From assembly GCF_003334305.1 (NCBI RefSeq), contig NZ_QOWS01000003.1: 64,000 nt of DNA, one strand, 5' to 3'. Source of the DNA: Escherichia coli. GTDB lineage: Bacteria > Pseudomonadota > Gammaproteobacteria > Enterobacterales > Enterobacteriaceae. The notes below the pieces were generated by a model. The model was given only the letters and a program-made list of their open reading frames with translations. It was not told the origin of the DNA and made no database searches. The translations under genes and the position numbers were made by a program. Shown piece by piece: positions 2,214 through 22,899 of this stretch (within the stretch, counting starts at the first letter, position 1; every line of letters starts with the position of its first letter).

Positions 2214-2298
2214 GCCGAAGTGGCGAAATCGGTAGACGCAGTTGATTCAAAATCAACCGTAGAAATACGTGCCGGTTCGAGTCCGGCCTTCGGCACCA
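2214..2298 (+). tRNA. leuX: tRNA-Leu (anticodon CAA)
   Basis: 85-nt sequence GCCGAAGTGGCGAAATCGGTAGACGCAGTTGATTCAAAATCAACCGTAGAAATACGTGCCGGTTCGAGTCCGGCCTTCGGCACCA: 7-bp acceptor stem, long variable arm, CAA in the anticodon loop, encoded CCA end. Confidence 0.95.
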
Positions 2299-2314
2299 CA
2301 TCGTATGCAAATCG

Positions 2315-2339
2315 AGTCGCTCAAGGGCGGCTTTTTTTG
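2315..2339 (+). terminator. Rho-independent terminator after leuX
   Basis: Stem agtcgc / gcggct with a 6-nt loop followed by a run of seven T (2333-2339). Confidence 0.55.
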
Positions 2340-2499
2340 TGCCTGAAATCCAGTATCCGCAAGGCTTTCCTCGCTTTTTCACTCAACCTAAGTCAACCTG
2401 ATTCAATCTACATCAACTTACTGATGCGGGTACAACTGCGGGTATTTCCCGGTTCGATTATGTTTGTACCCACACAGGGCCCTTGAAAGGATACTCATC

Positions 2500-3764
2500 A
2501 TGGCTCTGAGTGATGTGAAGGTCCGTTCGGCTAAGCCGGAAGCAAAAGCCTATAAACTTACTGACGGTGAAGGCATGGTTTTGTTGGTCACCCTAATGGC
2601 TCCAAATACTGGCGACTTCGTTATCGTTTTGGCGGTAAGGAGAAGATGCTGGCGCTGGGGAAATACCCTGAAGTCTCGCTGGTCGATGCCAGAGGTCGCC
2701 GGGATGAAGCCCGTAAGTTGTTAGCTAACGGCGTCGATCCTAGTGAGAACAAGAAAGCTGTTAAGGTAGAGCATGAGCAAGAGGTGATAACGTTTGAAGT
2801 GGTAGCCAGAGAGTGGCACGCCAGCAATCAGAAGTGGTCTGCATCGCATAGCGCTCGTGTATTGAAAAGCCTCGAAGATAATCTCTTTGCTGCTATCGGT
2901 AAGCGGAACATTGCTGATCTGAAGACTCGGGATCTGCTTGTCCCCATCAAAGCGGTGGAGTCGTCTGGGCGTCTCGAAGTCGCTGCTCGTTTGCAGCAGC
3001 ATACTACCGCGATTATACGCTTTGCTGTACACAGTGGATTAATCGACTACAACCCCGCTCAAGAGATTGCTGGTGCGGTTGCTACGGCGAAAAGACAGCA
3101 TCGTGCTGCTCTGGAACTTAACCGCATTCCTGAATTGCTTCAACGCATCTATCACTATTCTGGCAGGCCGTTAACCCGACTGGCGGTTGAACTCACATTG
3201 TTAGTTTTCATCCGTTCAAGCGAGTTGCGTTTTGCTCGCTGGTCAGAAGTTGATTTTGATACTGCCATGTGGACGATTCCGGGAGAACGTGAGCCACTGG
3301 AGGGAGTTAAGCATTCTCAGCGTGGTTCGAAGATGCGGACTCCACATCTTGTACCCTTATCTCGACAAGCTCTCACCATTCTGGAAAAAATCAAAAGCAT
3401 GAGTGGAAACCGTGAGCTGATCTTCGTTGGTGATCACGATCCGCGTAAGCCAATGAGTGAGAATACGCTTAACAAGGCCTTGCGAGTGATGGGCTATGAC
3501 ACGAAAACGGAAGTGTGTGGACATGGTTTCAGGACGATGGCGTGTAGTTCTTTGATTGAATCGGGATTGTGGTCGAGGGATGCAGTAGAGCGGCAGATGA
3601 GTCATCAGGAACGTAGCTCAGTACGGGCGGCTTATATCCATAAGGCGGAACATCTTGGGGAGCGAATGTTGATGCTGCAGTGGTGGGCTGATTATCTGGA
3701 TGCGAATAGAATGGCGGCTATCACTCCATTTGACTATGCAAAGATTAATAGTTCTTTTCGATAA
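2500..3764 (+). pseudogene. intB: P4-family tyrosine integrase with an N-terminal frameshift; longest intact frame 2646-3764
   Basis: ATG at 2500 gives MALSDVKVRSAKPEAKAYKLTDGEGMVLLV and then leaves frame; the expected continuation HPNGSKYWRLRYRFGGKEKMLALGKYPEVSLVDARGRRDEARKLLANGVDPS is in the other frame joined at about nt 2589, consistent with a 1-bp deletion (gtcac where gtccac is expected). Position next to a tRNA 3' end is typical for P4-type integrases. Confidence 0.75.
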
Positions 3765-3820
3765 TTCTATCTAAGTATATGAATATTAACTGTTTTTTAA
3801 TTAAAGGCTTATAACTGAGA

Positions 3821-3854
3821 AGCCTCCGCCCTAATGGGGAGAGGCTTTTGTCTT
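3821..3854 (+). terminator. Possible terminator hairpin after the integrase gene
   Basis: agcctc / gaggct inverted repeat followed by tttgtctt; the loop is long (14 nt), so this is weak. Confidence 0.3.
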
Positions 3855-3965: not shown

Positions 3966-5435
3966 TCAAATAACTCCAAGCTTTGCATACAATTCTTTTT
4001 TCTCTTTCATGCTGTTATCCAATGGTGCTACTCGCAATGCCGCTTTCAAATAAGCCGCAGCACCAGAGTAATCACGCATTTGCTCGCAAACTAAAATGAG
4101 TTGGCTTAACACATGGAACTTCATTGGAGTTGTTTGGTTTACTTTCTCCAATAGTACTCTTGCTTCAGAATATTTCGCTTCAAGGCCAAGGATAGATGAT
4201 TCTAAATACATGGTGGCCGCGTTTTCTGCTTCAGCTTGCTTTCGTTGCAACAGCCAGAAATTTGCTTGACTGATATTGCGTAACTGTAGGTTTGCCTTAA
4301 CTATCAACTCGAACAAAGCTGCTGGTTGAGTCAATTTACCCTCAAGTAAGATCGCTTTATTATCTTCTACAACTTTTTCAAAGTCGAATAAGCGATTGGC
4401 GCGATACAAGGCAATAAGTTGCTGATGTAAAGCTTGTAGATCTTTACTGCGGCTATACTCCTGCGACGCTAATTGAGCAGCTTTTTGGTAAGATTGATCG
4501 GACATTGCTTCAAGTACCGCACTTGACCAGTCCTGAGCAGGTTTAGTTTGAAAAACGGGAGCAATAGCACCAACTTTTAATTGCTTAGTGGCAGCAGAAT
4601 CAAATGCATGAATTAAGTCGGAAATAGTGGAAAAGCGATCCTCCGCTCGTTTTTGTAAACAAGTAAGAACCACTTGTTCCAGGTCCGTATGAATAGAGCT
4701 ATTAATCTCTGTCGGAAGCTTGAAAGGTGCGTGGCGCTGAACTTGTGCTGGCGTATCATGGGGCAGCTTTCCTGTCAGCAGCTGGTATAGCAAAACACCT
4801 AAGCTATAGATGTCGCCCAATAGTAGCTCTTCCAGGCTGCCTCTACGGCTATCGACGTTGGAGAACTCTGGGGCCGAATACAGCACAGTCCCGCCATTTT
4901 CACGGGTACGAACGTAAATTTCTTCTGGTAAAGCTGAGCTGCCAAAGTCCGTCAACTTCACCAGGTCCCGCTCTCCAACCAAAATGTTATGTGGCTTAAT
5001 ATCTCCATGAGATATTGGTACTGGTAATTCGGCCAAATAATGCACAGCACAGAGCACTTGACGATATATTCTGAACAACCGTTCATAGGTCTGGCCAAAA
5101 TTACGCTGCCTGTCATCGAGCTTTTGCGCCAGGGTTTGGCTGGGAAAATACTCCATTTCAATATAGAACCATTCATTATCTATACGGCCCATATCAAAAA
5201 TTTGCACAATATTTTCGTGCGGCTCGACGTTTAAAAGCTCTTTACCTTCGGCAAGCTGACGGTCTTCCCGAGTAATATCCTTAGGGATTTTTACTGCGAC
5301 AATTTTTCCATCTTTCAGGCGTTCCGCCCGCCATACCCAGCCATGGCTGCCATCACCAAGGCATTCAAGTAACAGGTATTTGTCACCAAGGCGTTTATTC
5401 GTCCCTGGCAAAAAATGTGCTGATTTTATATTCAC
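3966..5435 (-). CDS. Hanks-type Ser/Thr protein kinase with a C-terminal helical (TPR-like) domain
   Basis: 489-aa ORF with Gly-rich loop LGDGSHGW, catalytic lysine in VAVKIP, catalytic loop HGDIKPHN, DFG, SAPE and DIYSLGVLLYQLLTG; C-terminal half is helical and repeat-like. Last gene of the operon; its start overlaps the upstream gene stop by 4 nt. Confidence 0.88.
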   Translation of the reverse strand: MNIKSAHFLPGTNKRLGDKYLLLECLGDGSHGWVWRAERLKDGKIVAVKIPKDITREDRQLAEGKELLNVEPHENIVQIFDMGRIDNEWFYIEMEYFPSQTLAQKLDDRQRNFGQTYERLFRIYRQVLCAVHYLAELPVPISHGDIKPHNILVGERDLVKLTDFGSSALPEEIYVRTRENGGTVLYSAPEFSNVDSRRGSLEELLLGDIYSLGVLLYQLLTGKLPHDTPAQVQRHAPFKLPTEINSSIHTDLEQVVLTCLQKRAEDRFSTISDLIHAFDSAATKQLKVGAIAPVFQTKPAQDWSSAVLEAMSDQSYQKAAQLASQEYSRSKDLQALHQQLIALYRANRLFDFEKVVEDNKAILLEGKLTQPAALFELIVKANLQLRNISQANFWLLQRKQAEAENAATMYLESSILGLEAKYSEARVLLEKVNQTTPMKFHVLSQLILVCEQMRDYSGAAAYLKAALRVAPLDNSMKEKKELYAKLGVI

Positions 5436-5974
5436 ATCAACACCTCATAGTGAATTCTGTCCAAAACAATCATGTTCAGGTTTTTGATAAATAAAAAGCG
5501 ACTAAATACCACCTCAACATCAGGAGCGGCGATTACTTGGGTACCCGTGGACGAAGTAAAACCCATACGGCATATGTCTTTCAGTTTTTGAGTATCAGGT
5601 ACACCTACTAAGCCTTGGCTCCAGGCACTGAGGACCAGGGTTTTGGGGCAATGATTCCAGCGCTGTGCTGCTTCCAGTAAGTTTTTTAATTTTTCTTCCA
5701 GCTTTTGCTGCCCCTTCGCTGAACCATCAAAGCGTTCAAATTCGATTAAACACACAGGCGATGCAGAAGATTTATGAAACCAGCCCGAGTCAGAGCGAAT
5801 ATCAGCACCAAATGTCCCTGGAGCCGGGCATTCCACTACCGCCATAAATGACTGTTCATGCCCGAATGTATTCCAAACGCTACAGCCCAGGCTGTGGACC
5901 AATACATCCTGGTCCAATAGCTTACCGCTTGCTAAAAGTGGAAATGTCTCATTTACCCAGGCAACTTCAGGCAT
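5432..5974 (-). CDS. Hypothetical protein (about 180 aa), operon partner of the kinase
   Basis: ORF track 5432-6031; the first ATG is at 5974 (complement of 5972-5974), 7 nt after the HerA-like stop and preceded by AAGGTG. No recognisable motif. Confidence 0.7.
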   Translation of the reverse strand: MPEVAWVNETFPLLASGKLLDQDVLVHSLGCSVWNTFGHEQSFMAVVECPAPGTFGADIRSDSGWFHKSSASPVCLIEFERFDGSAKGQQKLEEKLKNLLEAAQRWNHCPKTLVLSAWSQGLVGVPDTQKLKDICRMGFTSSTGTQVIAAPDVEVVFSRFLFIKNLNMIVLDRIHYEVLM

Positions 5975-5981
5975 AGGCACC

Positions 5982-7667
5982 TTAGCCACTGAAAGAGCCC
6001 CAAACACGCAGTACCTCTGGTGATTCACCACCGTGAATTAATGCCTTACTACCAACTTTAACAAGCAGTGGTGCAGGGATTGAACGACCACACACCAAAG
6101 CTTCACCGGTTGATAAACTCGGGAGTTCCTCCAGATCAGCTTTGCTCACCATATCTGATGCTTTAGCTATAAATCGTTGATCGTCAGGGTTCTTTAAGCG
6201 CATCGTAATTAGCGTATTGCACTGAGAGGTCACATCTGAATCTAATTTCGATGGACGCTGGCTCACAATGCCAAATCCAACGCCAAATTTACGACCTTCA
6301 CCAGCGATCTTTTTAATAATGCGGTGACTGACTGCGTTGCCGCCGGCCGGGGCAAAATTATGACCCTCTTCGTAAATGATAAAGCATGGGCGCAGCGGGT
6401 CCGTTTTGCTCGAGGCTGCTTTTAATATTTCACTAGATAACAGTGCACAAATGACTTGCTTAGCGGTATCACTCAAACCTTGTAAGTCAACAACGACTAA
6501 ACGCCCCTGTTGATTGCTCGGGCGACCCACCATTTTGTAAATATCAGTTGGCTCAGCCATTGTTGCGCTGTAAAAACTTTTAGCTTCATTAAGCACACGT
6601 GAAAGCTTCATCGAGGCGACGGCGGCACTACGGCCTGATAACGCCTTCGCCTCAGCTTCAGAAAGGTCGTCCCACTCTTTTAACTCTTCAATACCATCAC
6701 CTAATAAGAAGCGTAGGCGGTTAATATCTCGTGGCTCAGTCTTATCTGCAGAGCGCCAATAACGAATTGCAACATCGAGTACTCGTTGCTGCGGTTCCGT
6801 TAAGCCAGGTAATATTTCAGCAATATCGTCCATTTCAAAATGGTCAAACTGAAGCGCTAATGGCGTATTCTTACTGGCGTATTTATGTTTAAAAGATTCA
6901 TGCTGCGGCGAGTAAACCTGAATACCTGCACCGGCGGCTTGCAGCTTTTCAAAGGTCTGTTTTATCAGTGGCAGTGCTTCTTGATCACGCTTATCGTCAG
7001 TGGCTTCTAAGAAGCTTGAGAATTGCAGATTACCGCCAGCGAGGGCTTTACCGTATTCACCATGTGGGTCAAATACTACTACCGTACCGTTATTAACCGC
7101 AACTAAACGCTCAATAATGCGGCCAACTGTATAAGACTTACCTGAACCCGTCATTGCCAGAACAGCCAAATGCTCAGTGACCAACTTGTTCACGTCAATA
7201 AAAACAGGAACTGTATTCTCACCTTTGTCGTAGCCTACTAAGTTACCTAAGTGCAAACTGGAGTGTTCATTAAATTCGTAAAAATCACTCAAAAACTGAA
7301 AATCGACGGTTTCAACAGCGGTACCCGGGTTAAGCGGGCGACGTGGAATTTTGATTTGACGAGTAACAGGATCGCGGTAACCAACCAGCTCGACCTGAGC
7401 AAACATATTCTCACCAGTTACATTCGCACCGGGCAAAAGCTCAAGCTCGGTTACACCATCGCCAAAGCCGGCGTTATAGAGCATATTAGTACGGCTTATC
7501 TTGGTCACTCGCCCCAGTACGGCGACTTGCCCCTCATCTTTGCGTTCCTGGTGCATAATGCGTACAAACTCACCACGGCGTACTGAAAACGAGTCTTGTA
7601 CAACCATAGTTAACTGACTGGCATCACCAGTGTTACCGACTAATTTACCTAAAACTTTATAAGCCAT
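5982..7667 (-). CDS. HerA/FtsK-superfamily P-loop ATPase (DUF87-like)
   Basis: 561 aa; Walker A LAMTGSGKSYT, then VVVFDPHGEY, Walker B-like FIIYEEGHNF and a C-terminal GVGFGIVSQRPSKLD segment typical of HerA-type ATPases. Confidence 0.82.
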   Translation of the reverse strand: MAYKVLGKLVGNTGDASQLTMVVQDSFSVRRGEFVRIMHQERKDEGQVAVLGRVTKISRTNMLYNAGFGDGVTELELLPGANVTGENMFAQVELVGYRDPVTRQIKIPRRPLNPGTAVETVDFQFLSDFYEFNEHSSLHLGNLVGYDKGENTVPVFIDVNKLVTEHLAVLAMTGSGKSYTVGRIIERLVAVNNGTVVVFDPHGEYGKALAGGNLQFSSFLEATDDKRDQEALPLIKQTFEKLQAAGAGIQVYSPQHESFKHKYASKNTPLALQFDHFEMDDIAEILPGLTEPQQRVLDVAIRYWRSADKTEPRDINRLRFLLGDGIEELKEWDDLSEAEAKALSGRSAAVASMKLSRVLNEAKSFYSATMAEPTDIYKMVGRPSNQQGRLVVVDLQGLSDTAKQVICALLSSEILKAASSKTDPLRPCFIIYEEGHNFAPAGGNAVSHRIIKKIAGEGRKFGVGFGIVSQRPSKLDSDVTSQCNTLITMRLKNPDDQRFIAKASDMVSKADLEELPSLSTGEALVCGRSIPAPLLVKVGSKALIHGGESPEVLRVWGSFSG

Positions 7668-8814
7668 TATTCAATCCCTCATCGAGGCCTGCCAACCACC
7701 CTGCCTCAATATCATTATTCTTTAGTGCCTGGTGTAAACCCTGGCGATAAAACGTAGCAAATTTAGGTAAAATACCAAGCTGTTGATAACCAAGTAATTG
7801 TGGCAACGGCATTGCATTACCTTTGTTTTGCATATCCAGCACCATCAGGCGAGAGGCAACTAAATCGAGATCAGCACTTTTCCATTCTGGTTCGTCACCC
7901 GCTAATTGCACCATTTTTATCTGTCCACCTCGGGCACTACGGAAGTGAAAACCAATTAGACCTTGCTTAGCTTCAATATTGGGTTCAATGCGCTTTTCTT
8001 GTTCAGACAAACGAAATGCGATGGTGCGCGAATAGTTGCCTAAAATGCCATTGATAAATCGCAAATCTCCCACGCCAACCAAACTTTCATCCAGTCCTTC
8101 CAGATTTTGCATCAACTCTTTAGAAAACCCATCAGATGCTAAAATTTGTTTGCGTCCTTGTTCGGTACGTAAATCTTGTTTGGCGATACTTACAATGGCA
8201 CTAAAGCGCTCAGCCAAAATGCTCGCAAGTACTACACCATTTTGATTCCAGGGAAAAATTCTGGAGCGATGGTTTTGCCAAAAAGTTTCTATCACTTGTC
8301 TGGTTTTTTCGTACTCTTGTTTATGACGGACATTTCTCTCCAGCGGAGCCATATCCCGTGCTAAAAACAACGGCGTATCCAGCAAAATTAAATCGCCAGG
8401 CTCATAACCTAAAAGTTTTTTCTCAACTAACTGATAAGCCTGACGAATTTCAATTAAATCAAGCCGTTTACGCTGAGCTTCAAAATCAATATCATCCAGT
8501 TCTGATACCGAGTCGCTACCCACCGTGCTGACTTTATTGTCATCTATTAACAAATCTGTGCGCACTGCTGCACTGGCATAAATAAAACCACCCAATACCT
8601 TGTCTAAGCACGATTTAGTCGCAATACCGGCTACGCGTAAATTAACAATTGTGGGCTTGGGGACCGCTTTCACTAAGCCAGCATCACGGAATAGCGGCGC
8701 CACTTGCTCAATATCACGGACCTGTTTAAGCAAGCGTCCTGCACTTCCCGGTAAGCGAAGCTGGCTATCGATGGCGAGCGATTGCGCTAAATTCATCGTT
8801 TTGTTCTCATTCAT
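7657..8814 (-). CDS. Hypothetical protein (about 386 aa)
   Basis: ATG at 8814 (MNENKTMNLAQ...) lies 2 nt after the stop of the upstream gene; its 3' end overlaps the HerA-like start by 11 nt. No confident motif. Confidence 0.75.
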   Translation of the reverse strand: MNENKTMNLAQSLAIDSQLRLPGSAGRLLKQVRDIEQVAPLFRDAGLVKAVPKPTIVNLRVAGIATKSCLDKVLGGFIYASAAVRTDLLIDDNKVSTVGSDSVSELDDIDFEAQRKRLDLIEIRQAYQLVEKKLLGYEPGDLILLDTPLFLARDMAPLERNVRHKQEYEKTRQVIETFWQNHRSRIFPWNQNGVVLASILAERFSAIVSIAKQDLRTEQGRKQILASDGFSKELMQNLEGLDESLVGVGDLRFINGILGNYSRTIAFRLSEQEKRIEPNIEAKQGLIGFHFRSARGGQIKMVQLAGDEPEWKSADLDLVASRLMVLDMQNKGNAMPLPQLLGYQQLGILPKFATFYRQGLHQALKNNDIEAGWLAGLDEGLNNGL

Positions 8815-8816: not shown

Positions 8817-9665
8817 TTATAGCGTTCCTGTGTGTAGCTGCTCGCCAAGTAATGGGGCATAAGCCCAATATTGCGAGGCTTGTAGGCATGTTTTACCGGT
8901 AGCTGTTATGCCCGCGTCGTCGATAAAATCGTGCTGCCGCAACATCTCACCCCGCTTGACAATATCAAGGCTATTAACATCAAACATCAGCTTAACCGCA
9001 TTATGCTCAGACAACGCTTGTAAGTTCATGCCACCGCCAGCGTAGAGTAATAGCAATACAACTAGATCGTGCTTATCTGGCGTGTAGTCAGTTGATGGCG
9101 CTTTAGGTTCGATTATTCGTTCAGCAATGCCTGCATGGTCCACAAACCAATTCAACCAGCTCACCAGGAGCTCACTATGATCGAGTAAAGTCAGCGACCA
9201 CAAAGGTAACGTGGTAAAGGCTAATAGCCCACTGTTGCTGTGTTTTCGTATGTAGCGGGTATGCACTACATCACCGGCCTGGTGCTGGTAGCGATCTGCG
9301 CTGCCAGTAAAGCCAGCAATAGCCTGGTCTGTTTCACTGGCTAGCAAAGCGGTTAGCCCCGGTTCCTGCCCCCTCAAGCTCGCTGGTACTAACTGCCAAT
9401 CCAGTGGATAGGGCAATTGCGCTAATAAGGTAAATTGTTCTGCTTTCAGGTTTATTACCAAAGCGGCACAACCTGCCTGCATAGCCCAGTGATACAGGTG
9501 CTGCATAGTATTAGCGTCAGTCAACTCTTCTGCTTGCACTATTAACAAACCGCTGGCTGGCGGCGAGCTAATCCAATCCTTCATTAAGGGGGTAGCCCCC
9601 GCAACAGTTTGCAAAAAACGGCCTTTACGATTACTGGCCAGTGCCGCAGATAAATAACGACTCAT
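8817..9665 (-). CDS. Hypothetical protein (about 282 aa)
   Basis: ATG at 9665 (MSRYLSAAL...), 10 nt after the stop of the 1428-aa gene; the longer frame to 9692 needs a non-ATG start. No recognisable motif. Confidence 0.72.
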   Translation of the reverse strand: MSRYLSAALASNRKGRFLQTVAGATPLMKDWISSPPASGLLIVQAEELTDANTMQHLYHWAMQAGCAALVINLKAEQFTLLAQLPYPLDWQLVPASLRGQEPGLTALLASETDQAIAGFTGSADRYQHQAGDVVHTRYIRKHSNSGLLAFTTLPLWSLTLLDHSELLVSWLNWFVDHAGIAERIIEPKAPSTDYTPDKHDLVVLLLLYAGGGMNLQALSEHNAVKLMFDVNSLDIVKRGEMLRQHDFIDDAGITATGKTCLQASQYWAYAPLLGEQLHTGTL

Positions 9666-9675: not shown

Positions 9676-12600
9676 CTACAAACCAGTGGCAAAGGTAAGG
9701 CGCATTTTTACAATGCCTTTGTCTACAAGTCCTTTCTGTTGCTCAGGTGTTAACACGGGTTCCTGATTTTGGCTCAAAGCCTTATAAATCGGTTGCCAAT
9801 CCGCCAGTGTTAAGCCTGTATCATTTAATATTTGCTCACCTTGACTCTGCCATTTGGCCTGGGTGCTTTCACACACCTGTTGAAGTTCTCTGACACCCAA
9901 ATTGCTCACATCCTCCAGAGTCAACGCTGCTGGTTCCGCTTGCTTTTGAGAAGCCAATAGCGGTTTTAATAACGGCAGCCAGCTGTTTACCTGTGCGATG
10001 GAGTTGCGTCTTACTTGGTTTAGACGCTCTTCAATTTTAAGTAGCTGGCCTTGAATCGGTGTAAGTTGACCGCGTGCCGGTTTTAAAAGCTCTTCTGGTA
10101 AATCCCGTAACGATGAAAACTGCCCATTGCGCAAACTGTTTTGCATACTTTGACGCTTGCTCTCTGCATCACTGGGGAGATCGGCAATAGCATCTTCAAT
10201 GAGCTGTAATTTCATTACCAGTTTTGGTAGCTCTGCAATGTCATCGGCGAACTGATACTCAGCCGTGGCGCTACTAAGCCATTCTTGCAGTTGTTGTGCA
10301 CGTAGTTTTTGCTCTGTGAGGTTATTAACCAGCTTACTAAATCGTTCTTTGCAGTTGCGGTAGCTGGACAAAATATGCCCCTGAATCTCCGCTATCGGCA
10401 ACTGTTGATCATTGTGCAGGTTTAAACCCACTTCTTGCGCTAAGGCTGAAAGCTTGTCATGCGCTCTACCTAAATCGAGTTTACGCAGGTAATGCAGTAA
10501 GGTATCGCTATCTGCTTGCTGCTCTTTTCGGCCAGTGGCACTGCTGGTATCGTCTTTTAACGCTCCATCTAAAATATGACCTATGGTGCGCAGCGTGTTG
10601 GTGTACAGACGTTTCGGAAAATTCGTCAGCGGGGCACACTCTGTTTCAACATCTATGATTAAATCAACGAGTCGGTTGTTGATACGCTCAGCGCTGCACT
10701 CAACAAACTCGGCAAATAAACAGGCCTGTTCAATCCGTTGATAAAGCGAGGTCGTTTTGTCTTCTAAGCTGAGAATATGGGCATCTTTTAGCATAGGCCT
10801 GGAACTATTAAGCGGTTTAACCTTTGCTACCAGCTCCAGCACTTCAGCGCGTTTGTGGATAAGCCCTGCCAATACTTTCGTGTCGTTGGCCTCGACCATA
10901 TCAGCCAATTGTTCTTCTTGCTGTTTGAGCACGTTAAATAGCGATTGTGCTTTTTCCAGCTGCTCTTTAGCTTCCACGGTGACGAAACCCAGCTTATTTT
11001 TACCCAGTGGCGCGAACATTTCATTAATGCGTGCATAACCATACACGCGGCTCATGACTTCCACATTGGCTGCATAGCTGCCCATATCGTTACCACGGAA
11101 CCAGTTTTGCGCTTCTCTAATGGCATTTTCTAAGCGGGAGCGCGGGTAGTGCTCCCAAATTGCCTGTTTTTCTGTTGGATTGGTTAAAGTGAGTAAGTTC
11201 AGCTCTCCACACCACCACATCCAGTCATTAAACACGCCTTTGGCGGTAACACTCGTTTCAGCCACATAGGCGAAATAAAACTGTTGCTTAAAGCCTTCGA
11301 ATTGCCACTTGTGCTTTTTATTAGGGTGAGCAATACGGGCTAAAAATAATGGGATCTGCGCCTGGCTTCGCTGCACATTATTAAGTTCAGTAAATAGCCC
11401 GGCATGTTCATCGGCAGTGTAACCTTTGGCAATATAGCTGCCCGGCACCTTAAGTTTATCCAACAAGCTGCTCAGCTCATTCACTGGCACGCCGTGTTGC
11501 TGCTGTAAATCGAGAATGCCATTTAACTCAGGGTGAGCAATGGCCAGCTGATACCAGCCTTTAAACAACAGGTCTCGGTCATTCGGTGATAATTTACCAT
11601 CTACCTTTAACGGCCAGGCAATTAAACCGCGCTGCTGCAAACGCTGGCGCCACTTGTGAATGGCATCCGTGGCAAAGGTTGTCAGGGCATGCAGCTTGTT
11701 TTTGAATTTCGCGGTAAAGCTGTCGGCAGTTAAATTCACGCCGTGCAACTGACATGCTGCCAAACTTAAGCCAATACGCTCTAACTGGTCTGCTTCGCTT
11801 GGGTTGACATAATGCAGCAGTATCGCATCACGCAACTCATTTCTTTCATCCAGTCGGCTGTATTGCTCCATGAGATGTGCAGAAGCAGTTAACGCTAATA
11901 CTGGCGTGCGACCATTTTGGTGGCTGTGGTTTGCCGCAAAGGTGTGAAGATTGTTCAGCTCAATTAGGTTGCTGACCCAGGCAAACAAGGCTTTACCTTC
12001 TGGGTGAAGCTTAAATCCATCCAGGGTAAGTAAACCACCCTGGCGGCCACGGGGCTCGGTTAAAATGGCCAAAGGTGCATCGTCGCTGCCCGCTTTATTA
12101 CTCAGCAAGTTTTCATCATAGGTCCAGTTGTTATCAAGTAATCTCACAAAGCCCGTTACACGGGCTAATGCCTTGATGAGCGGCTTCTGGCTACTTTGTT
12201 TGCTAAGTTCACTCATTGCCTGTTCATGAGCGTCGCCCATGGCGGGATCTTTAAAAATCAGTGAGTTTTGCTGGGCACTGCGATAGCGCAAATCCAGGCG
12301 CAGTAACATCGCCACACTGGGGCCAATATGCGTTGCTTCGCTGGCGTCCAGTTCGGTAGTTTCACCCACTAGCTTGTGCCATAAGGCATCGGCAGCGAAT
12401 TCAATCGCTGGGTGGTCATACAGCAAGCTGAGTAAGTATTTAAACTCACCTTTTGACAGAGGTAGTAATACCGCGCCTTTATCGCCGCTTGCGGCTTGTT
12501 CTTTAATTGAAAAAGTACGCAGGTTATCCAGCAAAGTATCTAAGTTCAGCGCTTGATCTACTGCAGGGTAGTACCATTCATCTTTATCGCGGCGGAATTT

Positions 12601-13962
12601 GGCTTGCTCCAGGGCTTGTCGGCACTGTAGGCGGTCAATGCTCAGTTTGCGGTAATGAGCGGCTATGGGTTCCAGATCTTCGTTTTTCAGCGCCAGCAAT
12701 TCTGTGGCATAGCCCATTTCAGCTAAGCGCACGGGTAATTGGCCGTAGAGCAAACTACGACATTCGGTCAATAGTGCCTGGTCGCGAGTTTGAATGCCTT
12801 CTATCGCGCCTTTATCCAGCACATGCCTGGCTACGCGGCCAGAGCCTGCCAGCACAGCTTCAAATAAATCGCCCACATCCTTGATACTGCGGCCTGCTTG
12901 TTGGTATTGGCTCAGCACTGCATCCACATTAGCCATGACCACGTTAAACCAACCGAAGTTGGCACCACTCATGGCGTATGCAGCTTCCACTAAACCAGCA
13001 GGGTAATTAAAACCCAGCTTGCCGTCTTTTAAGAGGCTTGCCACATAGTCTGATACATCGGCAAAGGCATTATGCTCAAGTTCCACTAACTCAAAGCGGC
13101 GTGCGACCGATTGAATTTCGCGCAATTGCTGGCCAAGCAGTGGTGAACACAGCGCTACATAGCGCAACCATGGAAGTTTACGGCGAGGGTCTTCCTCTTT
13201 AATTGCTTTACCAATCAGGCGAATGGCCTGGCCATCGAGGCGTTTATTTTGTTCATCTTCCAGGCCAAAGGTGGCGGCTTCTGCAACGGTTTCCAGCTCA
13301 TCCAGCACCACCAACATATACTGCACGCCAAAGCTCTTTAATACTTTATAGGCGGCTTGCACCAAACTGACTACCAGCGTTTGGTCAGTATAGAGGTCTT
13401 CTTCGCTGTGGTTGGCGTTCAGCTGTAAGGCATCTGCTAACAGTTCAGATTTAAAGCCAAATGGCATTAAGCGTTCATAGGCTTGTTTGGCAATTTCACT
13501 TTGAATCGATCCATCAAAGGTTTGGGTGGCCAGTGGTAATAGCGCCTGATATAAACCAAAAGCAAACCAGTTATCCGAGTTTTGATAATCTGATGCCACT
13601 TGCGAGTAGCGAATGTAGAGCGCCAGGTATTTGTCTTGCGTGTCGCGATTAAACAGCTGCTTATCGTGCAGTTGGCCTTGTTCGTCGCGGACAAACCAGC
13701 CCCTTGAACAGTCGTTAATTTGTGCAACCAATTCATGGCCTAAACGTGATTTACCCCGACCCCATTCGGCTTCGACGGCAAACACATGGGCAAAGCGATC
13801 ATCGTCGTGATCCACCGTATGCAAAAAGGTTTGAAAGCGTTTAAAAAAGCGGCTCTGGCCCACTAACGGGTCGCGAGGTGGATAATCTGATACGCCCGTC
13901 GCCGCCCAGCGATGTTGTTTTGCCAGGCTATCAACCATCTGTTCGTTTAATTCAAAACTCAT
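9676..13962 (-). CDS. Giant protein (1428 aa) with an N-terminal KAP-type P-loop NTPase domain and about 1200 aa of helical extension
   Basis: Walker A AEWGRGKSRL (the GxWGxGKS pattern of KAP NTPases) near residue 65 and Walker B MLVVLDELE about 150 residues later; the remainder is long and uninterrupted. ATGA overlap with the upstream gene. Confidence 0.85.
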   Translation of the reverse strand: MSFELNEQMVDSLAKQHRWAATGVSDYPPRDPLVGQSRFFKRFQTFLHTVDHDDDRFAHVFAVEAEWGRGKSRLGHELVAQINDCSRGWFVRDEQGQLHDKQLFNRDTQDKYLALYIRYSQVASDYQNSDNWFAFGLYQALLPLATQTFDGSIQSEIAKQAYERLMPFGFKSELLADALQLNANHSEEDLYTDQTLVVSLVQAAYKVLKSFGVQYMLVVLDELETVAEAATFGLEDEQNKRLDGQAIRLIGKAIKEEDPRRKLPWLRYVALCSPLLGQQLREIQSVARRFELVELEHNAFADVSDYVASLLKDGKLGFNYPAGLVEAAYAMSGANFGWFNVVMANVDAVLSQYQQAGRSIKDVGDLFEAVLAGSGRVARHVLDKGAIEGIQTRDQALLTECRSLLYGQLPVRLAEMGYATELLALKNEDLEPIAAHYRKLSIDRLQCRQALEQAKFRRDKDEWYYPAVDQALNLDTLLDNLRTFSIKEQAASGDKGAVLLPLSKGEFKYLLSLLYDHPAIEFAADALWHKLVGETTELDASEATHIGPSVAMLLRLDLRYRSAQQNSLIFKDPAMGDAHEQAMSELSKQSSQKPLIKALARVTGFVRLLDNNWTYDENLLSNKAGSDDAPLAILTEPRGRQGGLLTLDGFKLHPEGKALFAWVSNLIELNNLHTFAANHSHQNGRTPVLALTASAHLMEQYSRLDERNELRDAILLHYVNPSEADQLERIGLSLAACQLHGVNLTADSFTAKFKNKLHALTTFATDAIHKWRQRLQQRGLIAWPLKVDGKLSPNDRDLLFKGWYQLAIAHPELNGILDLQQQHGVPVNELSSLLDKLKVPGSYIAKGYTADEHAGLFTELNNVQRSQAQIPLFLARIAHPNKKHKWQFEGFKQQFYFAYVAETSVTAKGVFNDWMWWCGELNLLTLTNPTEKQAIWEHYPRSRLENAIREAQNWFRGNDMGSYAANVEVMSRVYGYARINEMFAPLGKNKLGFVTVEAKEQLEKAQSLFNVLKQQEEQLADMVEANDTKVLAGLIHKRAEVLELVAKVKPLNSSRPMLKDAHILSLEDKTTSLYQRIEQACLFAEFVECSAERINNRLVDLIIDVETECAPLTNFPKRLYTNTLRTIGHILDGALKDDTSSATGRKEQQADSDTLLHYLRKLDLGRAHDKLSALAQEVGLNLHNDQQLPIAEIQGHILSSYRNCKERFSKLVNNLTEQKLRAQQLQEWLSSATAEYQFADDIAELPKLVMKLQLIEDAIADLPSDAESKRQSMQNSLRNGQFSSLRDLPEELLKPARGQLTPIQGQLLKIEERLNQVRRNSIAQVNSWLPLLKPLLASQKQAEPAALTLEDVSNLGVRELQQVCESTQAKWQSQGEQILNDTGLTLADWQPIYKALSQNQEPVLTPEQQKGLVDKGIVKMRLTFATGL

Positions 13963-15260
13963 AACGACGATCCTTGAAGGTTTATTCTATTGGCGGCGCG
14001 TTTTTTATTGGCATAGCAGTTTTGCGCCAGTTGCTTAATGGTCCGTTGTAACGTTTGGCTTTTGTAGCCAAATAGTGGTGCTAACGGCAGGCTATAACAG
14101 GCATCGCTGAAGCTTGTATGAATTCGATATTGGCCGGCCTCTCCACGACCCGCCTCGGTAAATTGCCAGATTTTTTTTGCCAACAATTCGGCAATGAATG
14201 AGCTCAGGACGCGGTTTAGGCGGTTGATGCTTTCCGTGTTCGCATCGAGTGCCGGGTAGAGGGGTATATTGAGCTCACCGAGCAGAAGCACAAGAAACTC
14301 GGCCAAACTACCCAGACTCACCTCATCACCTTCAATGCCCTGTACCGCCACATTTATTTGACCGGGGGCAAAGGCATTTTGCCCGGCAGGTAAGGTGAGC
14401 AACAAACCGCCACGTTGCTCGGCAGCCCAGGCATCTTGCACAAAGATAATTAGACTGAGTAAAAATAACCAGGGCTGTTGGGCGAATAGCTCGGTAAGCG
14501 GCATGTTGTCATGACCCGAGCGGGACACCAATAACCAATCGGCATTGGGTTTAAGGTTATGTTCATCAAGCAAGGTATTAGGGAGTGCTAACAACCGCCC
14601 ACTACACCAGTTATTTGTCAGTTGTTTTGCGGTGACATCCACCGCTTGTATAGGTGCCGGTGGTTCATTTTGTTCGCTCACGGTAAACAAGGTATAGCTG
14701 GTGCGCAAAATACGACATAGCGCGGGAATGGCAGCATTGTCGTTTAGGCTATGACCGAGCAAATCGCGTTCGGTTTGTGCCAGAGGGCCGGCAATGATTT
14801 GCGGCGTGGTGGCAGTGCTTTCCAGCTGGGCTAAGACCCATTCACTGGCATTGCCCAGTTGCTGAATGAGTTTAACCAATACCATTGTGTCACTCATCGT
14901 GCCTGCTTCCTGGCAGCGAGCGGCGGCTAAATTGATCCAATGTTGGCGAACATCTGGGTTTAAGCCCAACAACGCTAATTGCCATTCACCTGACTGGCTT
15001 AAATCGTTAAAGGCATCAAGCAATGGTGCAGTGAGGCTAAAGGCGCTAACGATATCCGTTTCAGCGTCGTTCTTTTTCGGCTGTATTATTGGTTGTAGCA
15101 GTGACCTAAGGGCAGGCACAGCCGCCAATAACAATGCTGCTTTGTTGGCGTTCAAACCACCTTGTTGCCAAAGCTGCAGGCAGAGGTTAAGTGCCGCTTC
15201 GCTATTTACGGGGTCGTTATATTGCCTGGTTGTACTGCTGTCCGTGCCCCTTGTCTCCAT
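13959..15260 (-). CDS. Hypothetical protein (433 aa)
   Basis: Complete ORF starting METRGTDSS; 2-nt gap to the upstream HsdS-like gene and 4-nt overlap with the downstream gene. No recognisable motif. Confidence 0.78.
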   Translation of the reverse strand: METRGTDSSTTRQYNDPVNSEAALNLCLQLWQQGGLNANKAALLLAAVPALRSLLQPIIQPKKNDAETDIVSAFSLTAPLLDAFNDLSQSGEWQLALLGLNPDVRQHWINLAAARCQEAGTMSDTMVLVKLIQQLGNASEWVLAQLESTATTPQIIAGPLAQTERDLLGHSLNDNAAIPALCRILRTSYTLFTVSEQNEPPAPIQAVDVTAKQLTNNWCSGRLLALPNTLLDEHNLKPNADWLLVSRSGHDNMPLTELFAQQPWLFLLSLIIFVQDAWAAEQRGGLLLTLPAGQNAFAPGQINVAVQGIEGDEVSLGSLAEFLVLLLGELNIPLYPALDANTESINRLNRVLSSFIAELLAKKIWQFTEAGRGEAGQYRIHTSFSDACYSLPLAPLFGYKSQTLQRTIKQLAQNCYANKKRAANRINLQGSSL

Positions 15261-15262: not shown

Positions 15263-16741
15263 TTACTCTTCAGCCTCCGCTTGCGCCGCCTCTTCCAGCA
15301 AACTGTATAACTCATCCACATCGCTAAATAGCGGTGTGGCACCTTCAATGGCATAACCCTCAGCGCTCAGTTTGCTTAAAATCGCTTGATCAAAGCTGCT
15401 GTCGCCATCTTCCAGGGCTTGTTGGGCCTGGATTAGTTGTTGCTCAGTCAGTTGGCCTTCGATTAATGACTCAACTAGAGTTTTGGCAGATGCTGTTAAC
15501 TTTTTTGCATATGCTGCCGTAGTAACGGCTAGTCTCAGCTTACTTCCTATTTCTCTATTCTTCGCTATGTCAATCGGAATCAGAATATTTAACAGGTTTT
15601 CTGAAGTCACTTTTGGTACAACGCTGCCAGTAGTCACACCTTTCCAACACGGAAAGTGTTTATCCAGGAACCTACAAATAGACTCAATATCATATTCATC
15701 TTTTACCTTTAAAACCCAAACATGGTTGTTTGCCCAAAACTTTCCATCAGCTACATTTGCACAGCCAATAGAGCCATCTTGCGCAATAATCAGATATTTA
15801 CCGTTGAAATTGAATTCGGTATGAGTATCTATTGGACCTGATGCGCCATAGTAAAAATATGGTCCGGGTACTCTGTCTTCCGATTTAATAGGGTCGCCAC
15901 ATTTGCATTTACTAATGAAATTAGATAGTTTTGATGAATTCCTAAAGGTCATTTGACTATCGGCCGCACGTGCAAACTCAGGAGCTAAAGACACTGCTGA
16001 TAATACCTGTTGTTTCATTCTTCTAGGTTTCAATGTTAATGAATCAACAAGGTTGAAGTGAAATAAATCTTTAATTTTTCTATCAGCCATTCCTTCAAGT
16101 CGTTTCGCCCAAGCGCGTAACTGCTCGGCTTGGCGAACTTTATCCCCGATGTATTTTTGGGCTAGAGGTAAAACTTTAGGAACCGCTAGCGAGCGGACAC
16201 TTGGGAAGTCAATTGCAGGGCGAGTTGCGCCATATGCTTCCTTCCAGATCGCTACTTGTCCGGTTTTGCTATTCAAATATGCCACCAAGAAATAGGCGTC
16301 AACTTTTTTGGGATCGGGCTTGAATCTGACTGAGTGCTGACTAATGTTGGCCGGTAGATGTTTAGCTGACACAACAGCCGATTTACCAAATTTTGCACCA
16401 GTAATCGTAAGTAAAACGTCGCCATCCACTAATCGGCTGCGCTTTAATTTTTCATCATCTTCATCGTTAATAAAAACAGCTTCTTCAGCTTGCAAGAACA
16501 TTTCTTCAACTTCAGAAGTGCGATAAAACTTAACACGGCCTTTTTCTAAATAATTTGCTCCTAAAGGTGTTGCGCCACTAGCCACCCCGCGCTTTGAATC
16601 AATTACCGCTTCTAGGGGCAAAGCACCTAGGTTGTCTTTTATCTTATTAATTTGTCTTTCAAATCGCGGTTGATAGTGCCAAGGATCAATCCGCCTTTCA
16701 GACAATTGTTCGGGTGTTCTTTTAAAAATAGTTGCCATCAC
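15263..16741 (-). CDS. Type I restriction-modification specificity subunit-like protein (HsdS-like, two target-recognition domains)
   Basis: Two repeated TRD-end segments (GATRPAIDFPSVRSLAVPKVLPLAQ and GVTTGSVVPKVTSENLLNILIPIDIAKNREIG) plus a helical C-terminus, resembling HsdS. Start is GTG at 16741 or ATG at 16738, overlapping the methyltransferase stop. Confidence 0.75.
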   Translation of the reverse strand: MMATIFKRTPEQLSERRIDPWHYQPRFERQINKIKDNLGALPLEAVIDSKRGVASGATPLGANYLEKGRVKFYRTSEVEEMFLQAEEAVFINDEDDEKLKRSRLVDGDVLLTITGAKFGKSAVVSAKHLPANISQHSVRFKPDPKKVDAYFLVAYLNSKTGQVAIWKEAYGATRPAIDFPSVRSLAVPKVLPLAQKYIGDKVRQAEQLRAWAKRLEGMADRKIKDLFHFNLVDSLTLKPRRMKQQVLSAVSLAPEFARAADSQMTFRNSSKLSNFISKCKCGDPIKSEDRVPGPYFYYGASGPIDTHTEFNFNGKYLIIAQDGSIGCANVADGKFWANNHVWVLKVKDEYDIESICRFLDKHFPCWKGVTTGSVVPKVTSENLLNILIPIDIAKNREIGSKLRLAVTTAAYAKKLTASAKTLVESLIEGQLTEQQLIQAQQALEDGDSSFDQAILSKLSAEGYAIEGATPLFSDVDELYSLLEEAAQAEAEE

Positions 16742-18885
16742 TCACCCCGCTTATAAGCCGATACAATCTTATCCAGATCGTTTGCGACACCGGCGTTATA
16801 GTCTTCGATATTGTTTTTCACCACATAACCCAATGTTTCAGCCACTGCCATAAACACGTCGGTTTGTGGCTCGGGCAAAAATTGCTCTGGCTGGTTGGGG
16901 TTAGCATGGCGTTTTTGTAAATACAAAATCGAGGTTTTGGCCCCCGTACCGGAGAGTTTAAAGCAGTCGCTCGGCAATGAAATTACTGCTTTTACAATAG
17001 CTTTACCGCCAACAAACTCGCCGGTTTTTTCGTCTTTTTTCCCCATAATGTACTCACGGACATAACGGTCGCCGGAGTTACATAAAATACCATCAGGCAG
17101 CACTATTAACAGGCGGCCACCGGGTTTAAGCAGTTGCAGGCAGCGGTCGATAAAAAGTACTGCTGGGTCAATAGTGGCACCTACCGGTTGCCAGTTGCCC
17201 TTGCTATCGGGCTTGCTGCCCAGCGCGAGCCCTGCGGTTGTAGGCTGCAGGCTGTAAAACGGCTTTTTATCAGTCCCGCCCGTTCTGCGCAAATCGGTAC
17301 GGTAGCCCGCCCATTTAGGCTCGCCGTTTTCATCCAGCTCTAAATCACCGATATCCTGCCACTTCATTTTCACGTGGTCATACCAGGCGTTGTAGCTATC
17401 AACGACTTTTTTGGTCGGACGAAAACCACCGAGCACTTGCTCCATATTGGCTTCGTAATTGGCTTTTGAGTTTTGACCATTTTTGCCTTTATCAAATTTA
17501 GGCGTACCGAACGGCGGGTTGGTGCAAATCAGGTCAAAGCTATTCGGCTTCAGAGCGTTAGTAGTGAGTGAGTTGTCGGTATAAAAAATCTGCGCTTTGG
17601 GGGCACCTTGCAATGCCATATTCACGCGGGCCAGCATTACCATGCGTGGTGCAGCATCGGCACCGGTAAATGCACAGTCGCGTAATTTTTGTTTCAATGA
17701 TTCTTTTTTATCGTCGGCCAGCACCAGCTTAAAATCGATCCATTTATCAATCTGGCTTAACGCCACCGAGCCAAAACCAAAGGAGCCACAGGTGGGGTCG
17801 CAGAAACGAAAATCGCCATTGGCTAAGCGCGATCGCATTTCATCGTCATCGTCGATGTCGTGCATAGCAATTTCTAGCATGGCCTGTTTTACTGGGTTTG
17901 GTGTTAAATAAACGCCAAGGCCACCTTTGGATTCAAAGTTAGCGCGTAGGAATACATCAAACACTCTGCCTAGTAAATCTCCTGACACATCAGCCAACGT
18001 GCCGTGTTCTTTCGCGATTTTACCGTCGTTGGTTTTTACCGGACCCAGGTTTTGTATTGCTTCCAGCAAATCCTGATAGTTTTTCGCAACAGACAGTCGC
18101 AGGTGTGTTTCTTTACTAAAGATGGGGTTACGTGAGCCATCATCTGAGATCACAACGTAGTTTTCGTGGCTTTTAAATTCCTCAAAGGCGGCTTTGATTT
18201 GGGCAACGGCTTTATCGCCGTGGCTCTCCACATATTGCCAATCAAAGACATCACGAAAACGCAGGGTATTTCCCTCATCATCTTTAAAGGTAAGGTCTTC
18301 ATCGTGATGCAGGCGGAAAGTTTCTAAAAACAGAAGCTTAGCTACTTCTTCAATAATGTCGTTCTTGTCGTTTACCTTGTCTTTGGTAACGCGATAAACA
18401 TTTTCATGGAAGGCATCAAATCGCTGCATTAAGCGTGTATAAACACGCATCGACCAGCGAAAGGTTGGATCACGCTCCATGCGATCAAAGCTACGTAATT
18501 CTTCCAGACCAGGCAGGGTATCTGCACCGTGGGTACCGTCAGATCCATCGGCACCGAACAAGGCCAAAATACGTTGGTTCAAGCCATCGTCCACAACGGC
18601 ATATACTGGCCAGTCACCTTCGATATCACTTAACAGCTGATAGGCTAAATCATCAAACTTTGCAGTGTCAGCGGCGTATTCCCAATGGCCTTCTGTCAGC
18701 GCAATCAACATGACTGGTGGCGTTAAGTTGCCTTCAACCAGGCCTTGAATGAGACCAGCCTTGGCGAATTCATGCTCGGGTAATTCGACCAATGGCTGAG
18801 TAAACTCGGAGTGCTGTTTGACCAGTTTATTGAACAGTGCTTCTAGCTGCTGTTGCGGGTCTTGTTTTTTTGCTTCTTTTGCCAT
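16738..18885 (-). CDS. N6-adenine DNA methyltransferase (HsdM-like) with an extra N-terminal region of about 350 aa
   Basis: 715 aa; AdoMet motif I-like DPTCGSFGFG and catalytic motif IV NPPFG; the domain order resembles the type I M subunit. Confidence 0.85.
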   Translation of the reverse strand: MAKEAKKQDPQQQLEALFNKLVKQHSEFTQPLVELPEHEFAKAGLIQGLVEGNLTPPVMLIALTEGHWEYAADTAKFDDLAYQLLSDIEGDWPVYAVVDDGLNQRILALFGADGSDGTHGADTLPGLEELRSFDRMERDPTFRWSMRVYTRLMQRFDAFHENVYRVTKDKVNDKNDIIEEVAKLLFLETFRLHHDEDLTFKDDEGNTLRFRDVFDWQYVESHGDKAVAQIKAAFEEFKSHENYVVISDDGSRNPIFSKETHLRLSVAKNYQDLLEAIQNLGPVKTNDGKIAKEHGTLADVSGDLLGRVFDVFLRANFESKGGLGVYLTPNPVKQAMLEIAMHDIDDDDEMRSRLANGDFRFCDPTCGSFGFGSVALSQIDKWIDFKLVLADDKKESLKQKLRDCAFTGADAAPRMVMLARVNMALQGAPKAQIFYTDNSLTTNALKPNSFDLICTNPPFGTPKFDKGKNGQNSKANYEANMEQVLGGFRPTKKVVDSYNAWYDHVKMKWQDIGDLELDENGEPKWAGYRTDLRRTGGTDKKPFYSLQPTTAGLALGSKPDSKGNWQPVGATIDPAVLFIDRCLQLLKPGGRLLIVLPDGILCNSGDRYVREYIMGKKDEKTGEFVGGKAIVKAVISLPSDCFKLSGTGAKTSILYLQKRHANPNQPEQFLPEPQTDVFMAVAETLGYVVKNNIEDYNAGVANDLDKIVSAYKRGE

Positions 18886-22730: not shown

Positions 22731-22899
22731 CGTGACTTTTCCTCTGTTGTGACATTACTTATTTTTTAATTAATATGAGGTATTCTAACTATATTGAGTT
22801 AATCGTTGTGACAAGTGCCTGTTATATATACAACTATCTGTTAACTCAGCTCTAATTTAAATACAATGTAAGGTTGTAGGGTGAATGCTGTTATCAACC
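22731..22899 (-). promoter_or_regulatory. AT-rich intergenic region, probable promoter of the 12-gene operon
   Basis: 169 bp between the HNH gene stop and the McrB-like start; candidate -35 TTGTCA (complement of 22809-22814) and -10 TATAGT (complement of 22788-22793) with a short 15-bp spacer, so the hexamer call is weak. Confidence 0.35.

Follow-up and report, generated by a model that had tools for sequence, protein, structure and literature searches.

A non-RD Hanks-type kinase fused to a TPR array closes a MADS-like operon with a predicted NurA-HerA pair in Escherichia coli

In the window analyzed here, a stretch of 64,000 nucleotides (nt) from Escherichia coli (contig NZ_QOWS01000003.1 of assembly GCF_003334305.1), a gene on the minus strand (3966..5435) encodes a Hanks-type serine/threonine kinase fused to a tetratricopeptide repeat (TPR) array. 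The gene closes a 10-gene operon of roughly 15 kb (19322 down to 3966, minus strand), which is located in a defense island at the tRNA-Leu gene leuX. With high confidence, the encoded protein was recognized as the Madl11 equivalent of the MADS-like system, matched to the published written layout of that system. The MADS-like system as such is already known as a bioinformatic candidate in Pseudomonas aeruginosa; what this study adds is the TPR assignment, the prediction that the partner of HerA is a NurA protein, evidence of how widely and how strictly the gene order is kept, and the separation from canonical MADS. The kinase is probably an obligate regulatory or licensing subunit of a methylation-based NurA-HerA anti-phage machine, and this machine would be the version of the MADS-like system found in E. 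coli.

The kinase gene was defined by an open reading frame of 489 amino acids (aa) with a GTG start codon, a Pfam Pkinase match, and family alignments. It coincides with the RefSeq coding sequence WP_001022619.1, which is named ‘serine/threonine-protein kinase’, and features a GAGG motif 7 bases 5′ of the start codon. The GTG start of the kinase gene and the TGA stop of the gene upstream share the four nucleotides GTGA (TTG ATG TGA in the upstream frame versus GTG AAT in the frame of the kinase). The gene overlapped in this way encodes a 180-aa protein (5432-5974) and not HerA, the gene of which is located one position further upstream. On the other side, 201 nt of non-coding DNA separate the kinase stop codon from the 3′ end of an integrase gene of the P4 type, which is frameshifted and runs convergently; by a consensus scan, no intrinsic terminator was detected 3′ of the kinase gene. 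A GC-rich hairpin (GCCTCTCCCC...GGCGGAGGC) without a U-tract was noticed 3′ of the kinase stop at about 3820-3850. A previous reading of this DNA from its sequence only had described a kinase gene at 3966-5435, being the last gene of an operon and overlapping the preceding gene by 4 nt, and each of these statements was reproduced.

The kinase domain comprises residues of about 14-290 (4566..5396, minus strand), as deduced from the alignment with StkP and PknB, from Foldseek, and from residue invariance in 67 sequences. Pfam Pkinase matched residues 22-270 with an E-value of 1.2e-33, and among proteins of solved structure, pneumococcal StkP and mycobacterial PknB are nearest in sequence; both were aligned over residues 14-278. 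In this alignment, the catalytic loop of the kinase, ISHGDIKPHNILV, falls on IVHRDLKPQNILL, with G144 in place of the so-called RD arginine. A Foldseek search with the whole AlphaFold2 model of the protein retrieved PknB, PknE, PknA, and Stk1 at E-values of 1e-11 to 1e-10 (PknB at 9e-12); all matches concerned the kinase domain, and none was obtained for the C-terminal half. Family alignments were computed for the first 30 homologues and then for 67 members recovered from one genome per species, distributed over many phyla. Within the 67 members, G29 and G32 of the Gly-rich loop (GxGxxG, residues 27-32), K49 (VAVK), E63, H143, D145, K147, N150, D163-F-G (163-165), P189, E190, and D208 are invariant, whereas A188 of the APE motif is present in 66 of 67; R267 also occurs in 66 members, the lone exception being an alignment gap. 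T183 of the P+1 loop is invariant as well, which would be expected for a Ser/Thr-specific kinase, and so is T177; both lie in the activation segment and are candidate phosphorylation sites.

All features by which a Hanks kinase is recognized, namely the fold, the Gly-rich loop, the VAIK lysine, the alpha-C glutamate, the HxD motif with its asparagine, DFG, APE, the aspartate of subdomain IX, and the arginine of subdomain XI, were thus found in the E. coli protein, and no arginine stands just before the catalytic aspartate, which places the kinase in the non-RD subclass. Since G144 of the H143-G144-D145 motif is kept in 66/67 family members, the non-RD state characterizes the family as a whole and does not reflect an isolated mutation of this protein. 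The catalytic residues remain unchanged across the 67 sequences, which span identities from 32% to 96%. The proposal of the sequence-only reading, that all canonical subdomain motifs are present, that glycine replaces arginine in the catalytic loop (HGD), and that the protein is an apparently catalytically competent non-RD Hanks kinase, is consistent with this complete and strongly conserved catalytic apparatus, from the conservation of which the kinase is predicted to be active.

The C-terminal half of the protein, formerly characterized as helical and repeat-like, is a TPR array (residues of about 303-486; 3978..4529, minus strand) composed of 12 helices in about six repeats, as assigned by means of the AlphaFold2 model, a profile search against the PDB, and weak Pfam matches. 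AlphaFold2 predicted 12 short helices at residues 303-486 with predicted local distance difference test (pLDDT) values of about 85-96, and the helix starts at residues 372, 406, 440, and 474 follow the 34-residue spacing of tandem TPR repeats in the last part of the array. For the single kinase sequence, Pfam reported only weak TPR_19 and TPR_14 matches, the single C-terminal sequence retrieved no match from the PDB, and a hydropathy autocorrelation of the C-terminal half for a period of 34 residues did not rise above shuffled sequences. A profile representing 21 diverse C-terminal domains of the kinase family, searched against the PDB, matched engineered and consensus TPR proteins with E-values between 3.6e-14 and 2e-9 at positions 15-183, that is, over nearly its full length; CDC27, SRP72, and MamA followed among the further matches. 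Because Foldseek with the whole model gave kinase matches only, the TPR call rests on this profile search, which sharpens the former description. Conserved patches within the TPR region are D302-W-S (302-304) at its start and (C/F/Y)EQxRD at residues 450-455. TPR arrays are classic protein-interaction modules.

The search for relatives of the kinase covered about 100,000 species, each represented by one genome. It yielded 65 loci, and in 61 of these the relative is full-length, with 32-96% identity. The hosts belong to the Gamma-, Beta-, and Alphaproteobacteria, Cyanobacteria, Planctomycetota, Acidobacteriota, Verrucomicrobiota, Myxococcota, Fibrobacter, and Bacillota. The genes for the NurA-like protein, HerA, the 180-aa protein, and the kinase stand in line in 56 out of the 57 loci with enough upstream sequence, and all seven genes from the 433-aa gene to the kinase gene were present in 48 of the 53 loci for which 10 kb of upstream sequence were available. 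Furthermore, 43 of 60 loci share the stop/start overlap of 4 nt, and nine more possess a 1-nt overlap. The tie between the kinase and the HerA module suggested earlier thus extends far beyond E. coli and is much closer than a single overlap would indicate. In this species scan, the kinase family was essentially never found outside the operon. Among 1.8 billion representative proteins, full-length members of the family scored 584, 405, and 263 bits, and the next matches were generic kinases whose alignments were confined to the kinase domain. The family forms a small clade set apart from other kinases and is a dedicated component of this operon system.

The proteins of the system differ in their rates of evolution. 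Median identity to the E. coli proteins amounted to 83% for HerA, 60% for the NurA-like protein, 54% for the kinase, 49% for the 1428-aa protein, and 48% for the 180-aa protein; the lowest values were obtained for the 433-aa (34%) and the 282-aa protein (30%). HerA, with 65-99% identity across phyla, is the most conserved gene of the system, and the fast-evolving 282-aa and 433-aa proteins are candidates for parts that contact the phage or determine specificity.

The HerA-like module mentioned above most likely represents a NurA-HerA pair. The HerA-family hexameric translocase/ATPase (561 aa; 5982..7667, minus strand) was identified by the HerA models of PADLOC (E-value of 1.2e-56) and NCBIfam, and its best match among the PDB sequences is 9x1l, the HerA chain of the HerA-NurA complex of T. 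kodakarensis (E-value of 4.4e-48). Upstream of it, a 385-aa protein (7657..8814, minus strand) was identified as a candidate nuclease of the NurA fold (RNase H-like) using AlphaFold2 and Foldseek. Its model reached a pLDDT of 82 and a predicted template modeling (pTM) score of 0.80, and the first 11 Foldseek matches in the PDB were all NurA structures, the best of them being Sulfolobus NurA (2YGK; E-value of 1.4e-11); the NurA chains of the HerA-NurA complexes of T. kodakarensis and D. radiodurans were also in the list, the entries of which include the complexes 9x1n/9x1m/9x1l as well as 7F6D. Sequence identity to the NurA structures is only 11-13%, and Pfam NurA was faintly detected in 2 out of 30 members of the 385-aa family. 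D107, D146, E277, H290, and D317 are invariant in the alignment of this family. A DptG-like identity of the HerA neighbor, corresponding to Mad7 of MADS, was also considered and was not supported; the fold search led to NurA. The 3′ end of the 385-aa gene overlaps the HerA start, and in encoding a NurA-fold protein and HerA, these two adjacent genes resemble the archaeal and bacterial NurA-HerA complex of DNA end resection. In contrast to the latter, the E. coli pair forms part of a defense operon based on modification, with the 180-aa gene and the kinase gene coming after it. The nuclease and translocase activities of the pair are predicted from these folds and families.

The operon as a whole corresponds to a candidate system reported from P. 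aeruginosa. Maestri and colleagues described a ‘MADS-like’ candidate of 11 genes in P. aeruginosa defense islands, with a WYL regulator as the first gene, a methylase as the third, an S (specificity) subunit as the fourth, an ATPase as the sixth, a helicase/translocase as the ninth, and a kinase as the eleventh, the rest being hypothetical; these loci adjoin type IV restriction genes (bioRxiv 10.1101/2023.03.30.534895, Supplementary Notes). Exactly this layout was found in P. monteilii (locus L009), where the genes encode BrxR/WYL (304 aa), a 132-aa protein, an N6_Mtase protein (707 aa), S (504 aa), proteins of 426, 1428, 275, and 380 aa, HerA (561 aa), a 192-aa protein, and a kinase of 490 aa, which is 58% identical to the E. 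coli kinase. The same gene order was observed in the defense island of a P. aeruginosa genome (locus L078), and its kinase belongs to the same 90%-identity cluster as the protein P0107. Pseudomonas loci of this layout carry kinases that are 58-59% identical to the E. coli kinase, and the E. coli operon represents genes 2 to 11 in the same order. However, the WYL/HTH gene Madl1 is missing from the E. coli island, and genes of the McrC and McrB families stand in its place. Two of the hypothetical parts can be specified from the E. coli proteins, since a NurA fold is predicted for the product of the eighth gene and the kinase ends in a TPR array. The work on MADS has reportedly been published in its final version in Cell Host Microbe in 2024 (Maestri et al.). 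No other published name for the operon was found in the surveys of BREX-related or of Dnd and HerA-capture systems (PMC12839542, PMC10853773).

The P. aeruginosa island harboring the same system (loci L077/L078, 17167-21473) additionally encodes a Mokosh-like protein of 2098 aa, in which a kinase domain is combined with helicase domains, as well as a MazG-like pair together with an SLFN-helicase; it thus contains a second, unrelated defense kinase.

PADLOC assigned the kinase to mad6 of MADS as its best match, and the MADS system (mad1-8 of P. aeruginosa SMC4386) likewise is a methylation-based multi-gene system in which an N6-methylase and an S subunit occur alongside a Hanks kinase and a HerA-like ATPase. 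Nevertheless, the operon is not a canonical MADS system. On the NCBIfam models, the kinase reached 116.9 bits for MAD6 (NF047741; cut-off 460), the S subunit 90 bits for MAD5 (cut-off 400), and the methylase 112 bits for MAD2 (cut-off 720). Equivalents of Mad1, Mad3 (AbiEii/Toprim), and Mad4 (DUF4276) were not detected among the operon proteins by PADLOC, NCBIfam, or Pfam, and none of these proteins matched the mad7 model even at E<=10. The mad8 model did recognize the operon HerA (E-value of 6.6e-26), and generic HerA models scored better. In the model of the authors, Mad6, Mad7 (DptG-like), and Mad8 (HerA) are mandatory (bioRxiv 10.1101/2023.03.30.534895). The two systems differ in the partner of HerA, which is DptG-like in MADS and NurA-like in the E. 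coli operon, and in the architecture of the kinase, because the MAD6 model features the kinase in the C-terminal half, whereas in the E. coli protein the kinase comes first and the TPR array second. A true MAD6 sequence was sought for a comparison of the RD state, and 0 out of 10 candidate representatives scored above the cut-off.

The operon is transcribed from the minus strand in the order 128-aa protein, N6-methyltransferase, S subunit, 433-aa, 1428-aa, 282-aa, and 385-aa proteins, HerA, 180-aa protein, and kinase. The 128-aa protein (18936..19322, minus strand) shares 35% identity (E-value of 3e-22) with the product of the second gene of the Pseudomonas operon (L009:5872-6270). It is followed by the HsdM-family N6-adenine DNA methyltransferase of 715 aa (16738..18885, minus strand; PADLOC MTase_I with 1577 bits, and RefSeq) and by the type I-like S subunit (15263..16738, minus strand; PADLOC Specificity_I with an E-value of 7.7e-164), named ‘restriction endonuclease subunit S’ in RefSeq. 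Next in order are the fast-evolving 433-aa protein (13959..15260, minus strand) and the 1428-aa protein (9676..13962, minus strand), the equivalent of the Madl6 ‘ATPase’, which features an N-terminal P-loop with the Walker A sequence GRGKS at residues 68-72. The Walker A motif GxGK[ST] was found in 51/51 orthologues of this protein; a faint KAP_NTPase hit had an E-value of 0.53, and no significant match was obtained in PADLOC, NCBIfam, Pfam, PHROGs, or the PDB sequences. The fast-evolving 282-aa protein (8817..9665, minus strand) was traced through the loci by tblastn synteny. For the 180-, 282-, 385-, and 433-aa proteins, no significant match was obtained with Pfam, PADLOC, NCBIfam, PHROGs, or the sequences of the PDB, and it took structure prediction to assign the 385-aa protein.

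The conserved 180-aa protein (5432..5974, minus strand), translationally coupled to the kinase, is 49% identical to its Pseudomonas counterpart. Its family alignment contains the invariant residues H27, S28, E48, R60, D62, W65, E78, E80, R81, and K95. The D..ExE..K pattern among them (E48, D62, E78-x-E80-R81, and K95) is reminiscent of PD-(D/E)xK nucleases of the BamHI type and may point to such a relationship.

The island boundary is formed by tRNA-Leu(CAA) at 2214-2298 and the P4-type integrase gene at 2464-3764 (together 2214..3764, plus strand; ARAGORN and RefSeq). The integrase gene is split over two frames and is named ‘tyrosine-type recombinase/integrase, frameshifted’ in RefSeq, and the island is probably no longer mobile. 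Directly upstream of the operon, genes of the McrC and McrB families are located (19319..22730, minus strand); they were identified by the NCBIfam models McrC and McrB, below the equivalog cut-off, and by RefSeq. The stop of the McrC gene and the start of the 128-aa gene share 4 nt. Farther upstream, a phosphorothioate-DNA-binding restriction endonuclease was noticed (NF045808, 437 bits), the region extending over 19319-23829 on the minus strand. Among 5426 complete E. coli genomes, the operon region was present in 254 (about 5%), and the kinase reading frame was at least 99% identical in 253 of the 255 matching E. coli records. In E. coli Ecol_224 (NZ_CP018948.1), the operon region is interrupted by an IS1 element. 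The E. coli IncF plasmid NZ_CP098193.1 (locus L075, 352-1807) was rejected as a further copy of the system, as its kinase gene, 68% identical, is broken and the rest of the system is missing; it represents a decayed remnant.

Hanks kinases have been implicated in phage defense in several other contexts. PglW of Pgl/BREX type 2 is also a Hanks kinase integral to methylation-dependent phage resistance. It comprises 1400-1600 aa with a NERD nuclease, a tandem of pseudo-kinase and kinase, a winged helix-turn-helix (wHTH) domain, and an inactive STAND module (PMC12839542). The kinase studied here differs from it, since it reached only 66.7 bits on the PglW model NF033442 in comparison to a cut-off of 990, and no PglX, PglZ, or BrxC genes were detected near it by PADLOC or NCBIfam. 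PD-T4-6 of E. coli is another Hanks kinase in anti-phage defense, and its PADLOC models match the kinase at E-values of about 1e-39; however, PD-T4-6 is a stand-alone gene, whereas the kinase is locked in an operon of 10-11 genes. Stk2 of Staphylococcus likewise is a stand-alone Hanks kinase acting against phages. Mycobacterial PknG combines a non-RD kinase with a C-terminal TPR domain in the same order as the E. coli protein, and IRAK, Xa21, and FLS2 are eukaryotic non-RD immune kinases. Non-RD kinases are classically not controlled by phosphorylation of the activation loop and are over-represented among innate immune receptors. These points on non-RD kinases and PknG are attributed to Dardick and Ronald (2006) and Scherr et al. 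(2007). The resemblance to PknG and the eukaryotic non-RD kinases is a functional analogy only, as no specific sequence relationship to the E. coli kinase was found.

The model proposed here for the role of the kinase builds on the observed domain identity, residue conservation, synteny, translational coupling, and NurA and HerA folds, and it extends to the presumed substrate of the kinase, the direction in which it would regulate, and the putative anti-phage function of the system. The N6-methyltransferase and the S subunit would mark the host DNA at a specific motif, as judged from their families. The 1428-aa P-loop protein and the 433-aa and 282-aa proteins may help to recognize unmarked or foreign DNA or phage factors, which is the weakest step of the model. 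The NurA-fold nuclease and the HerA hexamer would act as the effector that translocates and degrades DNA, with unmarked DNA being passed on to it. The kinase would dock via its TPR array on another subunit or on a phage protein and phosphorylate a component of the machine, most plausibly HerA, the NurA-like protein, or the 180-aa protein, and this modification would license or restrain restriction. Lacking the RD arginine, the kinase probably needs no phosphorylation of its activation loop and would instead be controlled by partner binding via the TPR array. A role in defense is in line with the context of the operon, that is, the island with tRNA and integrase, the adjoining McrBC-family genes, and the restriction endonuclease binding phosphorothioate DNA. 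In MADS, deletion of the kinase gene mad6 abolishes defense (bioRxiv 10.1101/2023.03.30.534895).

A more specific version of this model can be put forward only tentatively. The kinase could be an infection switch, the TPR array of which either holds it on the NurA-HerA pair or captures a phage protein, phosphorylation then licensing the destruction of unmethylated DNA. If this were true, it would be the first example from bacterial immunity of a NurA-HerA degradation machine that is gated by a Hanks kinase, and a striking functional parallel to the non-RD kinases that stand atop innate immune signaling in plants and animals would be given.

Several observations weigh against a regulatory or licensing role in an anti-phage machine. 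No experimental test of the MADS-like system in any host was found in the literature. The precedent of MADS is an analogy of architecture and not an orthology, because no specific relationship links the kinase to Mad6: with the MAD6 model, scores of 235-370 bits were obtained for generic kinases of the PknB type, compared to 116.9 bits for the kinase. The AlphaFold2 model is of moderate confidence in the kinase domain, and the activation loop was not modeled; non-RD catalytic loops are also known from some weakly active kinases. Finally, in Variovorax sp. dw_308 (locus L056, 9648-11455), the kinase and the 180-aa gene occur without a detectable rest of the system. This is the only such locus; either a remnant or a self-sufficient pair of genes may be present there, and some autonomy of the kinase is thus possible.

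Such autonomy would be expected if the kinase were an effector of abortive infection like PD-T4-6 or Stk2, its TPR array sensing a phage protein and its kinase domain phosphorylating many host proteins and thereby shutting down the cell, so that it would serve as a backup layer and not as a regulator. This is unlikely, but it can draw on the Variovorax locus, on the single-gene PD-T4-6 models being the next PADLOC matches after mad6 (E-value of 1e-39), on the extension of one PD-T4-6 model and of the phage kinase family phrog_2361 into the C-terminal region, and on the terminal position of the gene, which is typical of accessory modules. However, the conserved gene order in 56/57 loci together with the start/stop overlap across phyla argues for stoichiometric co-production with the machine, and a family that is essentially confined to the operon does not resemble an independent effector. 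The kinase also evolves more slowly (median 54%) than the fast-evolving proteins of 282 and 433 aa, which are the better candidates for surfaces in contact with phages. Another explanation, which we regard as quite improbable, is a self-protection switch, in which the kinase would phosphorylate the methyltransferase, the S subunit, or the 1428-aa protein and set modification against restriction, thereby preventing autoimmunity after acquisition of the system or during replication. Modification-based multi-gene systems with kinases do exist (PglW in Pgl/BREX type 2, and MADS), and MADS shows that control of autoimmunity is critical in systems of this kind, since a strain deleted for only the S subunit is not viable unless it lacks mad2 or mad3 as well; the kinase is, however, coupled to the HerA side of the operon and not to the methyltransferase and S side.

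The catalytic apparatus itself bears on the proposal of a pseudokinase or mere scaffold, in which the TPR array and the kinase fold would only hold the complex together and phosphotransfer would play no part. TPR proteins are typical scaffolds and the HGD catalytic loop is non-canonical, but the residues for ATP binding and phosphotransfer are invariant (A188 in 66/67) down to 32% identity, which would be unexpected for pseudokinases and renders this explanation very improbable. Least probable of all is a housekeeping-type signaling kinase that merely adjoins a defense operon. Its generic RefSeq name and its best NCBIfam match, the PknB/Stk1 model, would be compatible with such a function; yet the score on that model is 151 bits in comparison to a cut-off of 450, the gene occurs in <5% of E. 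coli genomes and inside a tRNA-linked island, and the fact that across phyla it is always inherited together with a constant set of six to ten genes effectively refutes this view.

The operon described here bears on the question of how kinases contribute to methylation-based phage defense, as in Pgl/BREX type 2 and MADS. It offers a compact, conserved kinase-TPR protein beside a recognizable NurA-HerA effector, and its natural host, E. coli, is the one in which genetics, biochemistry, and work with phage panels are easiest. What had been hypothetical proteins can now be arranged in a testable layout consisting of a modification module, sensing candidates, a NurA-HerA effector, and a kinase, and the residues K49, D145, and D163 as well as the TPR groove can be named for mutation. 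Furthermore, the system reaches beyond Pseudomonas to at least six phyla. The value of the finding lies in this well-defined experimental entry point rather than in surprise.

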